A DNA stretch of 64,000 nucleotides. Source: Leucoraja erinacea. Lineage: Eukaryota. Below, piece after piece: positions 16,666 through 54,283 of the stretch (positions are counted from its first letter, which is position 1; each line of letters begins with the position of its first letter). The DNA lies in the NCBI RefSeq assembly GCF_028641065.1, contig NC_073384.1, positions 37,944,001 through 38,008,000 on the forward strand. The letters are read 5' to 3'. Made by a program: the position numbers and the translations under genes. The notes under the pieces were generated by a model. The model was not told the DNA's origin. It was given only the letters and a program-made list of their open reading frames with translations, and ran no database searches.

Positions 16666-16980
16666 GGTATGCAGCAAAGAATTTCACTGTGCCTAGTCAC
16701 ATATGACAAGAAAGTATTCCATTCCATCTACAGTTCCTTCCTTCACATTTTGAAGAAGGGTCCTGACCCAAAACGTCACCAATCCTTTTTCTGCTGAGAT
16801 GCTGCCTGCCCACTGGGTTACTCCAGCACTTTGAGTTTATTTAACATTCTGGTAAACCTCTTCTGCACCTTCTCCACCAAATCCTTCCTACAACGAGGGG
16901 GCGACCAGAATTGTATATAACTTCACACATTCTGGTTGGCTGAGGTTACCTATTGTTCCCAACCCCAAGAAGATTTGAAC

Positions 16981-16992
16981 CAAAGATCTTTG
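16981..16992. mobile_element. 12-bp palindrome CAAAGATCTTTG with 8-bp TSD (collapsed micro-MITE or footprint)
   Basis: ATTTGAAC (16973-16980) / CAAAGATCTTTG / ATTTGAAC (16993-17000); same termini as 17370-17407. Confidence 0.7.
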
Positions 16993-17000
16993 ATTTGAAC

Positions 17001-17110
17001 CTCGCGCCGCCGCCCGCGACGTCATCACGCAACGTGGATTTGGGTGGGGGCGGTAGTGCGCCTGCGCCCCGCCGGTCGGCTTCACCGCGAAAGGATCTTT
17101 GGGCTGCACC
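17001..17110 (+). promoter_or_regulatory. SERAC1: SERAC1 CpG-island promoter / 5' UTR
   Basis: CpG-rich; CRE-like GACGTCA ~17018; GC box GGGGCGG 17047-17053; NRF1-like GCGCCTGCGC 17058-17067; Kozak GCACC-ATG. Confidence 0.7.
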
Positions 17111-17219
17111 ATGTCGCTGCGTGCGCGTTGTGTGTGCGTGTGCTGCAGCCGGGGGCTGGTCGCCGGCATCCCCGCCACCCACCCCCACCCTCGCCCTCGC
17201 TCTCGCTGGACACGCCTCA
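17111..17219 (+). CDS. SERAC1: SERAC1 coding exon 1
   Basis: MSLRARCVCVCCSRGL...RWTRL resembles human N-terminus MSLAAYCVICCRR; donor A|GTAAGA, phase 1. Confidence 0.85.
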
Positions 17220-17369
17220 GTAAGACCGACATCCGCATCTTTGTTTTGTTTACTGTCCGCAGCAGGCTTTGTTGGGGGGTGAGGAGTGGACTCGGTGCTT
17301 TGGAGCATGAGGGGGATGCAGTTGCCCCGCTGTGGAGGGCCCCATGCTGGGCATTGGGGCAGTTGCAGC

Positions 17370-17407
17370 CAAAGATCCTATAGCAGAGCTCTGCTATAGG
17401 ATCTTTG
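17370..17407. mobile_element. 38-bp perfect palindrome with 8-bp TSD (TIR-only hAT-like micro-MITE)
   Basis: CAAAGATCCTATAGCAGAG|CTCTGCTATAGGATCTTTG flanked by GTTGCAGC (17362-17369, 17408-17415). Confidence 0.85.
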
Positions 17408-19371
17408 GTTGCAGCCGCCGGGACAGCCTGCAAACTCTTGGGCCTGCATTGGTTTTGCCTCGGGATTTATGTGTGGCAGGTCTGCAACACATTGTTTTCG
17501 TTCTGAGCTGATTTTTTTGCTTAGTAGGCACATTATAACTACGCCTGATTGGAGAACATAGAACAACATAGAAAAGCACAGCTGCCCCGTTGAGTTTCTT
17601 CAGCAACTAATTATTTTGGCTCAAGATTTCAGCACCTTCAATCTCTTAGACCATACCATAGAGGAACAGACCCTTTAGTTCAGTTCATTCTTATCACGTG
17701 AACTGGGGTACAGTGGCAAATAATAAACTAAAAGGCCTGTTCCTGTTGGCCCATAATTTCTGTGCCAAACATAAATAATCCAAGTTCTAATCCAATAATC
17801 CCAAATTAAACTAATTTCAGACAAATGTAGAAAAATACAGGTGGTGTTTATACCAAAGATAGACACAAAGCTGGAGTAACTCAGCAGGACAGGCAGCATT
17901 CCTGACCCTTGAACAAATCTCATATCCTTCTACTCCACCTATCCATGTGCCCATCTCAAAATTTCAAGTGCCATTGTTGTATGCATCCATCACCACTCTT
18001 GGCAGTGCATTCTGCACCCACCACCCTCTGGAAAAGAAACGTTTCTCTGCACACTTCCTTTAATCTTTGTTGCTCTTACCTTAACCTGTGCTCTGTAGTG
18101 ATTAACATTTCTGACTGCTTACCACATCTACGCCTCTCATAATTTTTTTAACCTCAATCGGGTCTCCTCTCAACTTTAGGCGTTCTAGAGAAAACAATCC
18201 AAGTTTGGATCCAAGCTATCTCATTGTAACTAATACCCCCCTCCCCCCCAAGGGATCATTCTGGTAGACCTCATTACAGAAATGAAAACCAATAGTCTGG
18301 AAAACCTGCTGATGTGGCAGCACCAAAGTCCTGGGTTTACTAGATCATCAGAATTTTATTGCATGCTAGACCACATCATTTTCCTCCTGTTTTCAAGTTC
18401 ATTACTTGCAGCCCAGTAAAGCATAAGTTCATTGTAGATTAACTACCGGTACATGTTAATGTGACAAATAATTCAATTAACTTGTCATTTTATCAAAAAA
18501 AAAAAATTTCTCTTGGGAAGTACATTACTAGCCATGTTTGATGCAAGTATTTCTTTACAGTCTCAATTGTTTGCATATTTTAAGATGGTAAAACAAATAA
18601 TAATTAATGTTCTACTTAAGTCAATTTTACAGGCACACAGTCTGACAATGCACAACAAGACTAAACATAAAGTACACACAATTCTGAGTAGAAAAAAAAA
18701 GTACTGCAAAAGATTTAAAAAAAAACATTAATGCAAAACACAGTAAACAGGTACGGCCATGGTAATGCAAGTGGTGGTCCATAGTGTTCCTTTGTCACCG
18801 TTCAATTAGGGTTGTGTGGGTGGGTTTCTGAAGCTGATGGGTGTACAGCTGATAGCATGACTTGAAGTCATGCATGCATGGTGGAGCATGACTTCATGCT
18901 TCTGTACGGCCTCCTCGGTAGTACCAGTCAAAGAGAGCATGACCTGGATGGTGAGGGTCTTTGATAGATGCTGCTTTCTTGAGGCAGCACCTCTTGTCGA
19001 TGCTATTTATGGAGGGGAAGACTGCCAGTCATGCAGCCTCTGTACATTCCTGTATTGTGGGAATTGCCATTCAAGGGCATGATGCAGCCAGTTCTCCCCC
19101 CCCCCCCACCCCCCATCACTGAAGAAGGGTCCTGACCCACAACGCCCAAAGATGCTGCCTGACCTGCTGAGTTACTCTGGCAATTTGCCTTTTTTTTTTA
19201 TGGAACCTGCAAGGATACCTTCTAGGCAAAATTTGATCAATTCAGAATTAGCAAACTTCGTACTTCGGAATGATTACCTTTTGTGCGGGCAGTATTTATC
19301 TCTAATTCATGACTTGAAACTCTACTCACTAGTGTGCAACATTCTGAATTGCACTGTTTCTACTTTGACAG

Positions 19372-20895: not shown

Positions 20896-23800
20896 AGTAC
20901 ATTGTAGCAAAGTGTGGAGTCAGGCATTTTGGTAATAGGAATAAAGGCGTAGACTATTTTTTAAATGGGGAGAGAATTCACAAATCGGAGGTGCAAAGGG
21001 ACTTGGGAGTGGTGGTGCAGGATTCCAAAAAGGTTAATTTGAAAGACAAATTGGTAGAAAGGAAGGCATAAGCAATGTGAGCATTTATTTTGAGAGGAAT
21101 AGAATATAAAAACAGATGTAATGCTGAGGCTTCATAACGCATCGGTCAGACCGCATTTGGAATATTGTGAGCAGTTTTGGGCTCCATCTCTGAGGATGGA
21201 TGTGCTGGCGTTGAGGATCCAGGGGGGTTTTACGAAAATGATCCCAGGAATGAGTGGGTTGACATATGATGAAAATTTGACGGCACTAGGTCTGTATTTG
21301 CTGGAGATTAGAAGGATGAGTGGGTCCTCATTGCAACTTACTGAATATTGAAAGGCTAAGATAGATTGGATGTGGAGTGGATGTTTTCACTTGTGGGAAA
21401 GTCTAGGAGCAGAGACCAAAGCCTTAGAATAAAAGGATGTACCTTTAGAAAGATGAGGAGGAATTTCTTTAGTCAGAGGGTGGTGAATCTGATGAAGCCA
21501 AATAAAGTTACAAAAATAAGAAAAAATTAAAATAGGTTTCAGGGCTAGCTTACAGTTTACATTTAGTGTCAAATTAGGCTTGTCTAAGGTTGTGGGGTGT
21601 GGGAGATAATAAATCCTATAACATTGTCTTCCAAGTGACAGGCAGAGAGAGAAGGAGATAAAGATATCTTTGAAGTAGAGATCAAATGACCAATGTTTAT
21701 GGGGAGGAGGCAATAAAGGAAGACGAGGAATAGGCAGTCACATCTTTGTAAACAAATGACCTATGTTTATGAGGGACCAAATGACAGAGGAAGCAGCGAA
21801 GAGAGCTAGGGTGGTCTATTTGGAGATAAAACAAATGGACAATGTTTTTAGTATATCTTGTACCATGTAAAAAAAAGGTTTGATGTGATGCATTCTGTGG
21901 AAACCTTTTCCAGTACTTCTGACCATGACTAATGTCTGTGGAATGTGATAAGGGGACAAAAAAACCTATTTAAAGCAATGTAATTCTGTTGTTCAGGGAA
22001 GGTGACTGAGCACAGTCAAGTGTCTGTGTTGGTCACTTGACTGGAGTTCTCCCTCCCTTCCATCGGCCGATGTTAAGTAAAGTTTTGAACTGGTCTACCA
22101 AACCGTTTGTGTGGTGTCTGTTTATTAAGAAGCGAACCTGGTTTAGTTGTTATAACAGTAACTTTTTCATTGGCGTAGTTATGCAGGCCTCGCTGGGACC
22201 ACATCAACGGCTGACTGTGCAAGAGGTTGCGGAGGTTGCCGGGATTGGAAGGGAGATAACTGAGCTCTATCGGCCCCCTTGTAAGACCGACTCCCTAGAA
22301 ACTCCCGGGAACATCTGTGATCCTTCATCAGAGGTTGAATTGGTTCCCTGCCGAGGTTCTTAGACACAGACGAAGGTAAGACCAGTTGGGCTTTATATGG
22401 TTTTTTTTTAAGAAGGGATATTGTGTATGTATTTTTAAGACAGAATTGTGCATGTATTTTTAAGAATGGCTTATGTATATTGTTAAGACGGACTTGAGCG
22501 GTTCCTCTCTCTCTCTGTCTATCTCTCTTTGTTTTCTTTTTTTCTCTCTCTACTAAGGGCTCATCAGCCTTGTTGAGATATCCGTGATTTGTCGGGTTGA
22601 GATACGGGGGTTGAGGTGTGTGTCTGGCTTATTGAGACATCCGAAGAGTAGTCGGGTTGAGAAATAAGTGACGTTGTATATTACAGTATTAAGAAGTCTG
22701 CCAAGTTGAAAAGAAACTGGGGTCTCGGTTAGCGGGTCTGCTTCGTTGAGACACTTGGGTCGTATATTAAGGAGTTAAAAAGTCAGCCAAATTGAGAAAC
22801 TGGGGTCTCATTTAGTGGGTCGGCCTGGTTGATATATTTGGAACGATTCGGAATTACGAAGTCTGTTTTCTCTCTCTTTCTATCTATCTATGGGGAATGC
22901 TCTGGATACCAGTCCTATATATGTGTTATTTGAATCCTATGTATAATAAGAAATTTAGCATGTTAAGTTACAAGTTGACCAAATGGTTAGGGGATGAAGC
23001 CTGGCCTGTAGGGGGCACATGGAATGTCGAGACAATTAAACAAGCAGAGGTGTTGATATGGGAAAGGAAGACAGGAACCCACTAGAAAGCCGATTTAAAA
23101 TAGACTTTAATTTACAGCAATTGAACACTTATTGATTACTGATTCTGAATGAGTTCTTTTGGGAAAGATTGTTTTGATATGATAACAGAGGCTGTCTTTT
23201 AAAATGCTAATGAAGCAAGATTACTGTTTTCAAGCAAACAAAAAGATGTTGAAGCATGTGCTGTGTGAGTGAAATGAAGGTAGATGAAAAATGGTCTTGT
23301 GACTTAAAAAAGGAGGTTTGAGGGAACTCACAATGAGGGATAAAAGGTGAGAAGATAAAGTAGATTGGGGAAGAGAACATATTTGGAGAATTGAATGTTT
23401 AGGTGGGGAGAGCCTCTTCGGAGATAATCGGATTAAAGAATAAATTCACAGGGAAGTGTTAAGAAGGAACTGGAGATACTGAAGGATCAAAGGAGGACAA
23501 AAGTGCTGGTGAAACTAAGCTGGTGAACAAGATTTACAACTTTTTATTGCCCCTGGAGAGTGGGGGGAAGCCACCAACAGGCCCTGGGCAATTAACTAAT
23601 TATGTATGGTCGGCAATTAACCCATGTCTTGCCAGATCTACATTCCCAGGTTGGAGGAGCTTTGCTGGGAGCCATAAAAGCTATACGATGACGGGGGTGC
23701 TGGGACAAGAAGAAATTGAGACTGTTGAAAGAACAACCAAGTGTTGCTAATAACATGAACTGCTGTAAAGATGAAAGATCATCGTCGCTGGATACATTTG

Positions 23801-54102: not shown

Positions 54103-54283
54103 TGACCCAGCCATGAAGCAGTTCCTGTTGTACTTGGATGATACAAATGTTTTGGGGAAAAAATTTATAATACAGGACCTTGATGAAACTCATTTATTTG
54201 TCTTGGCTGAGGTGGTCCATATCTTACAAGAAAAAGTTGGAGACTTAATGGATCAGAATTCATTTCCATTGACACAGAAGTAA
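54103..54283 (+). CDS. GTF2H5: GTF2H5 last coding exon; spliced product 71 aa
   Basis: [33 protein letters not shown]...[12 protein letters not shown]; AG acceptor. Confidence 0.97.

Follow-up and report, generated by a model that had tools for sequence, protein, structure and literature searches.

The start of the SERAC1 gene in the skate Leucoraja erinacea carries three short stubs, which are very probably the tips of a transposon of the P-element superfamily, left behind as scars at the donor site when longer elements were excised by a staggered cut that would fall 18–20 nt inside each transposon end. The stubs themselves are predicted to be immobile and without function, and the three scars at SERAC1 are probably neutral. 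All positions below are numbered along the window, by which we mean the whole 64-kb stretch of L. erinacea contig NC_073384.1 that was analysed.

Since a search with the Pfam domain PGAP1 gave no match in the window, the host gene was identified through a homologue instead. The peptide encoded by the exon at 17111 matches the Amblyraja radiata SERAC1 N-terminus at 92% identity, and that protein aligns in order across 17111–47519. Thus the gene named in the preliminary description of this sequence is indeed SERAC1, and the two palindromes reported there do bracket its first coding exon (Table 1). The surrounding DNA is rich in CpG: between 17000 and 17330 the GC content is 0.67 and the observed-to-expected ratio of CpG is 0.95. 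Raw RNA over 16885–17355 amounts to 3 reads in total from two runs. The window contains 16 island-like stretches, of which one, the stretch just described, has scars of the P-type family. Downstream of SERAC1 and in tandem with it, we observe a GTF2H5 exon at 54104–54283 on the + strand (Pfam Tfb5, E 8.9e-19); in human, the two genes presumably lie head to head.

Table 1. Features at the SERAC1 start, in window coordinates.
Feature	Position	Strand	Basis or remark
CpG-island-like stretch over the SERAC1 start	16851-17350	.	computed
Site 1, left TSD copy, ATTTGAAC	16973-16980	.	sequence; organism C lacks 20 nt here, equal to the insert plus one copy
Site 1, 12-bp remnant	16981-16992	.	two 8-nt transposon tips sharing a GATC overlap
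Site 1, right TSD copy, ATTTGAAC	16993-17000	.	sequence
Site 3, left copy of 8-bp duplication	17078-17085	.	one mismatch in the window, at 17082
Site 3, one-armed remnant	17086-17101	-	matches the initial 16 nt of one transposon end, apart from two substitutions in the window
Site 3, right duplication copy	17102-17109	.	sequence; ends one base ahead of the start codon
SERAC1 first coding exon	17111-17219	+	homologue match; donor GT at 17220 read from sequence
Site 2, left TSD copy, GTTGCAGC	17362-17369	.	sequence
Site 2, 38-bp palindrome	17370-17407	.	two 20-nt tips sharing a GC overlap; in the intron after the first coding exon
Site 2, right TSD copy, GTTGCAGC	17408-17415	.	sequence

Both palindromes, of 12 and 38 bp, are present between perfect 8-bp duplications just as first described. 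They lie 378 nt apart, site 1 about 120 bp upstream of the start codon and site 2 about 150 bp into the intron, and they are the only inserts of 10–50 nt in the 64-kb window that have inverted ends of at least 4 nt and sit between perfect 8-bp direct repeats. The half-site at 17093–17101, which had been set aside as possibly due to chance, belongs instead to a third remnant, flanked by 8-bp repeats with a single mismatch. The 12-mer is likely an end-joining footprint, or else a longer footprint shortened through slippage; for this one remnant the latter history has, in our judgement, perhaps one chance in three. Further into the gene, in intron 1, two identical 12-bp palindromes with their flanks (21660–22072 and 24590–25001) lie 2,930 bp apart, an arrangement that points to a local duplication or to two copies of one repeat.

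In order to compare the locus with that of relatives, contigs of four runs were aligned to 16850–17750, and two raw RNA runs and two contig runs to 16885–17355; the relatives are thus represented by assembled contigs and not by raw DNA reads. In organism C, 20 nt are missing at site 1 and 46 nt at site 2, in each case the insert together with one copy of the repeat. Organism D skips exactly 46 nt (38 + 8) at site 2; its site 1 is short of 23 nt, spread over four pieces, and we take this for an empty site altered by a small local change. In organism B, which differs from the window by about 1%, there is no 20-nt loss, and contigs run across the centre of the 38-mer from both flanks, which speaks against the suspected assembly collapse of a longer hairpin.

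Site 3 has a different history. Organisms C and D, which differ from the window by about 3%, have at 17082 a G, the base of the right repeat copy, and a T at both 17089 and 17091. With these bases, 17086–17101 becomes the exact first 16 nt of one transposon end, and 17078–17085 repeats 17102–17109. Because both organisms read an exact end beside a repeated flank, the half-site is therefore an older one-armed scar beside the start codon; judged from these alignments, the other transposon end appears to have been lost, and the remnant to predate those at sites 1 and 2. Organism C has one further difference, at 17080, and organism D a 5-nt duplication inside the remnant. The gene start has thus been struck three times, all inside 440 bp of a CpG island: one strike came before the split from organisms C and D, and two came after it. 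The earlier suggestion of repeated strikes at this promoter gains a third case. As a separate observation, the window has three substitutions within the 24 bp of site 3 (17082–17091), none of which occurs in C or D, and this exceeds the roughly 3% divergence; organism B likely shares all three, since none is listed for it there. The first coding exon also shows a 12-nt in-frame length difference at 17182–17201: organisms C and D lack these bases, as do some of the contigs from another organism A run.

The remnants are part of a family with many copies. Across the 2.19-Gb genome there are 7,452 occurrences of the 14-mer CAAAGATCCTATAG, as compared with 5 of a control; end-to-end joints of 16–46 bp number 4,248, versus 7 for the reversed pattern, and the overlapped 12-mer numbers 1,131, versus 88 for its control. 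The expectation of many copies with 8-bp duplications is borne out. We sampled the first 50 joints on the largest contig, and found a perfect 8-bp duplication at 29 of them and one with at most two mismatches at 45. These 45 joints represent 35 distinct sites, the remainder being passive copies carried inside host repeats. Of the 12-mers, 27 were fetched: a duplication with no more than one mismatch flanks 10 of them, and the other 17 look like chance words, many of them inside another repeat. By scaling, we estimate at most about 3,000 independent joints and some 400 12-mers, redundancy being likely higher across the genome than in the sample. The exact repeat measures 8 bp in 47 of 89 centred elements and has some other length from 4 to 12 bp in only one, and the target consensus is (G/C)T-N4-A(C/G). 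Stub sizes range from 12 to 46 bp, with asymmetric arms, blunt joints and insertions.

Copies of host repeats allow a single site to be seen in several states. At one such site, 30 of 289 copies comprise 7 that are empty and 23 that carry footprints or decayed forms; none of these 30 copies has a full element, and organisms B, C and D likewise show only an empty site or a footprint. One host site occurs with 12-, 19-, 22- and 32-bp versions and another with 33-, 44- and 46-bp versions. The different sizes at the site with 289 copies do not count as evidence of independent excisions, since most of them seem to have arisen by later alteration of a single 33-bp footprint.

What element do these tips come from? 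The genome contains 40 matches to the P transposase RNase H family, of which 20 loci were fetched and extended. Two of the 20 are bounded by the ends of our family with perfect duplications, in elements of 10,519 bp (contig C956) and 9,654 bp (contig C1676). A transposase that goes with these ends can therefore be named, and it is a P transposase: a 773-codon open reading frame contains a helix-turn-helix (HTH) region, both parts of an RNase H domain as well as the GTP-binding insertion, and a THAP domain lies on two upstream exons (its first piece scores 18.5 bits, against a Pfam cut-off of 23.9, and its second lies above the cut-off). The only PDB match is the Drosophila P transposase (6P5A, E 1.3e-42). 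Relative to that structure, and using the residue list in PMC7776569, D230, D303 and E531 are kept, and seven of eight GTP residues are identical, with K400 replaced by R. On this sequence evidence we assign the elements with these ends to the P superfamily and not to hAT. The preliminary description, which had left open a P or a hAT affiliation, was thus right as to a DNA transposon with 8-bp duplications and as to P; membership in hAT is rejected, as both long elements bounded by these ends encode a P transposase.

The predicted three-exon gene is open from exon to exon in four of seven copies scored, one of which lacks most of exon 1, and reading through it requires a GC donor at intron 2. 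Both fully bounded copies have broken genes. None of the 20 loci examined combines both ends with an open gene, nor was a complete end pair found for the open copies among these loci. The elements bounded on both sides carry an 18-nt end, whereas the 38-mer in the window is of the 20-nt type; for that type only one end was found beside transposase genes, 5' ends being absent within the 18–30 kb fetched. Five long frames differ from one another at 0–28 of 2,319 bases, a near-identity that may reflect recent movement or segmental copying, and the open three-exon copies may, to judge from their sequence, still be active. Shorter relatives are common as well: 60 loci include 14 non-autonomous elements of 153–1,488 bp with 8-bp duplications. 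The terminal inverted repeats are imperfect and about 33 bp long, and internally deleted copies are present.

Several other features of the transposase copies deserve mention. Those on contigs C1296, C1087 and C1305 (loci L079, L081 and L083) read through only with a GC-AG second intron; were intron 2 retained, a stop would yield a THAP-only protein of about 128 amino acids, which by analogy could act like the short P repressors. Near both of its ends, the 10.5-kb element contains short footprints left by its own family (L078:7404–7514 and L111:7682–7712), some with duplications of their own, so the family has inserted into itself and then left. Among the best 120 transposase matches, most of which are unnamed, the named relatives are molluscan and 37–40% identical, and no vertebrate THAP9 is found among those named. 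Five unnamed proteins in this set (P0001–P0005) are 57–80% identical, after which identity drops to about 40%, a gap for which a narrow clade or horizontal transfer are possible explanations.

Evidence for excision comes from where the arms of the scars stop. Among the 68 long-element ends with AGC at one of positions 18, 19 or 20, 58 read ..AGC|AAGAT (another 25 ends are unclassed), and intact ends of the 20-nt type that continue into AAGAT number 2,389 across the genome. In the short joints, by comparison, 1,084 strand matches reach 20 nt, a peak inflated because the GC at the end of the arm is a favoured joining word, and 20 reach 22 nt, as against 88% expected from random breakpoints. Of those 20, a 30-mer that can be read equally well as 20+10 accounts for 12, and two clearly run on. 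The same limit appears in the largest-contig sample, where 88 of the 90 arms in the 45 joints with a duplication are at most 20 nt long, and the two arms that score longer are the ambiguous 30-mer and a later tandem duplication; such arm counts include passive copies within host repeats and later size changes by slippage.

The limit moves with the end variant. For the 18-nt variant, one of 100 matches listed, out of 419, continues into AA, and does so ambiguously; for the 19-nt variant, 3 of 36 run on past the motif, one of them as a true long arm. Were the cut fixed at 20 nt, the shorter ends should extend into AA or A; the cut thus seems to follow the motif rather than a set distance. The junctions in the 45 joints fall into 25 with microhomology, 11 blunt and 9 with an insertion, and blunt 20+20, 18+18 and 19+20 joints all occur. 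From these end products, a staggered cut 18–20 nt inside the ends, placed by the motif, is likely, although its position may be off by one base.

We can now propose how a scar would arise. A member of the family inserted in the germline and duplicated 8 bp, as the empty sites in relatives show. Transposase would then cut one strand at the very end of the element and the other just 3' of ..AGC, before AAGAT, leaving on each flank a 3' overhang of end sequence, as the arm limit and the Drosophila mechanism together suggest. The two identical overhangs would pair at self-complementary words: pairing at GC would give the 38-mer (20+20-2), and pairing at GATC the 12-mer (8+8-4), while at site 3 one overhang would have been lost. 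Finally, the small scar would be tolerated at the gene start and then spread. The sampled joints have the properties of P excision footprints, in that both copies of the duplication are kept, the arms do not exceed the limit, and the junctions are of end-joining types.

It is important to weigh this account against others that could produce short palindromes between direct repeats. For example, longer elements might have collapsed without transposase, through cruciform deletion between their inverted ends, as first suggested for these sites, through slippage deletion between those ends, or through aborted gap repair after excision. The 38-mer can fold as a hairpin, which merely restates that it is a palindrome, and the secondary size changes at the two host sites above are real, so that the idea retains some merit for later shrinkage and possibly for the 12-mer. 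The long elements, however, are not palindromes, and their inverted ends extend for about 33 bp while the arms stop sharply at 18–20 nt. Under random breakpoints, 60% of joints should have an arm of at least 22 nt, but only two of 45 do, both explained otherwise, and a 5-nt overlap lying just beyond the limit yields only 12 joints genome-wide. We therefore consider such a collapse improbable.

Somewhat less probable still is the proposal that the stubs are miniature elements consisting of terminal repeats alone, moved as units by the family's transposase. Every stub is indeed flanked by a separate 8-bp duplication, relatives show the site empty, and sizes of 38, 33 and 28 bp recur at unrelated sites; these, however, are the very sizes dictated by GC or GATC overlaps. 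The spread of sizes, the asymmetric arms, blunt joints and insertions, and the absence from the stubs of AAGAT and of the inner end kept by most scored long elements are at odds with a mobile unit, and a one-armed remnant with a duplication, such as site 3, cannot be one. Heterogeneous sizes, marks of end joining and a missing inner end thus leave mobile micro-MITEs, as postulated in the preliminary description, unsupported. MITEs form size-uniform subfamilies with complete ends, which the stubs do not, and which the family's elements of 370–405 bp and about 1 kb could. A last alternative would explain the 38-mer as a longer hairpin that was misassembled, and the 12-mer and the half-site as words that arose by chance; its probability is negligible, for although 17 of the 27 12-mers fetched elsewhere lack a duplication and contigs rather than raw DNA reads were compared, organism B crosses the 38-mer, organisms C and D lack the insert with one repeat copy, and both read the half-site as an exact end.

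Excision by a P-type transposase, the reading we prefer, has a close parallel in flies. In Drosophila, cleavage by the P transposase gives the donor 3' tails of end sequence that are 17 nt long (PMC2895639; PMC7776569). The end-joining products consist of repeat, arm, arm and repeat, and their junctions show microhomology, are blunt, contain an insertion or keep one arm only (PMC2895639 Table 1). The skate junction classes match those in that table, and skate and fly alike retain the 8-bp duplication on both sides with arms of end sequence up to a set limit (PMC2895639). Both also have a THAP-HTH-RNase H-GTP-binding transposase with shared catalytic residues, together with internally deleted copies (PMC7776569; 6P5A), and both show a palindromic GT..AC target bias (PMC2577343) and a preference for promoter-like DNA. 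They differ in that the limit is 17 nt in the fly and 18, 19 or 20 nt in the skate, according to the end variant and following the motif; in that the fly products cited come from experiments (PMC2895639), whereas those of the skate are passed on by inheritance, with thousands of them in one vertebrate genome; and in that the fly element is 2.9 kb with four exons, while the skate element is about 10 kb with a predicted three exons and ends that are imperfect repeats of about 33 bp.

The zebrafish Pdre2/THAP9 elements share with ours a vertebrate host, P-like affinity, 8-bp duplications and internally deleted copies (PMC10983969; PMC7776569). According to PMC10983969, Pdre ends are 13 bp long and of another sequence, the copies number about 50, and the zebrafish enzyme excised without integrating in those assays and left larger flanking deletions.

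The hAT elements and MITEs have in common with the skate family an 8-bp duplication and CA..TG ends, but the skate ends enclose a P transposase gene. Excision of hAT elements typically leaves flank sequence derived from a hairpin and not end sequence. The hAT elements Hobo and Hermes also favour T at target position 2 and A at position 7 (PMC2577343), as the skate family does.

The mechanism is thus known from flies, and P-like elements of vertebrates are known from zebrafish (PMC10983969). Literature searches outside subscription journals, Repbase and Dfam turned up no account of this family, nor of P footprints inherited across the genome of any vertebrate. What the window adds is the empty sites across species, the third scar, and two layers of time at one gene start. 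Thousands of inherited scars document how a vertebrate germline has repaired breaks by end joining, and where the element landed; if the cut is indeed set by the motif, they would form a genome-wide record, open to dating, of end joining in the skate germline and of the promoters open there. It would also be useful to have a vertebrate P transposase with young copies, because the zebrafish enzyme showed no integration in PMC10983969.

The end variants, with scars that stop at one motif 18, 19 or 20 nt in, supply a direct hypothesis along with the substrates on which to test it. The AAGAT just past the limit repeats end positions 3–7, and the Drosophila strand-transfer complex shows a fold-back helix (PMC7776569). 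Tentatively, and with rather less than even confidence, we suggest by analogy that this vertebrate P family might cut the inner strand at a motif and not at a set distance, that the freed 5' AAGAT could leave its partner for the last bases of the transferred strand and, by pairing with them, form a Drosophila-like fold-back helix, and that the loop would tolerate 18–20 nt.

The scars also favour CpG-rich DNA. Within 500 nt around 43 distinct scars, the median observed-to-expected CpG ratio is 0.68, compared with 0.38 in a background of 400 windows drawn from 20 evenly spread 10-kb stretches, windows in one stretch being not independent. Fifteen of the 43 scars, versus 23 of the 400 background windows, are island-like (Fisher p 1.8e-7), and CpG around the scars declines with distance. 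This bias fits the promoter preference of P elements, with the reservation that CpG-rich young repeats contribute and that the measure is of CpG, not of start sites. Some targets may be favoured at a finer scale: two copies of one host repeat, 840 bp apart (C1:3100667 and C1:3101506), carry footprints of 28 and 40 bp at the same position with different duplications, and are likely independent strikes on a preferred target.
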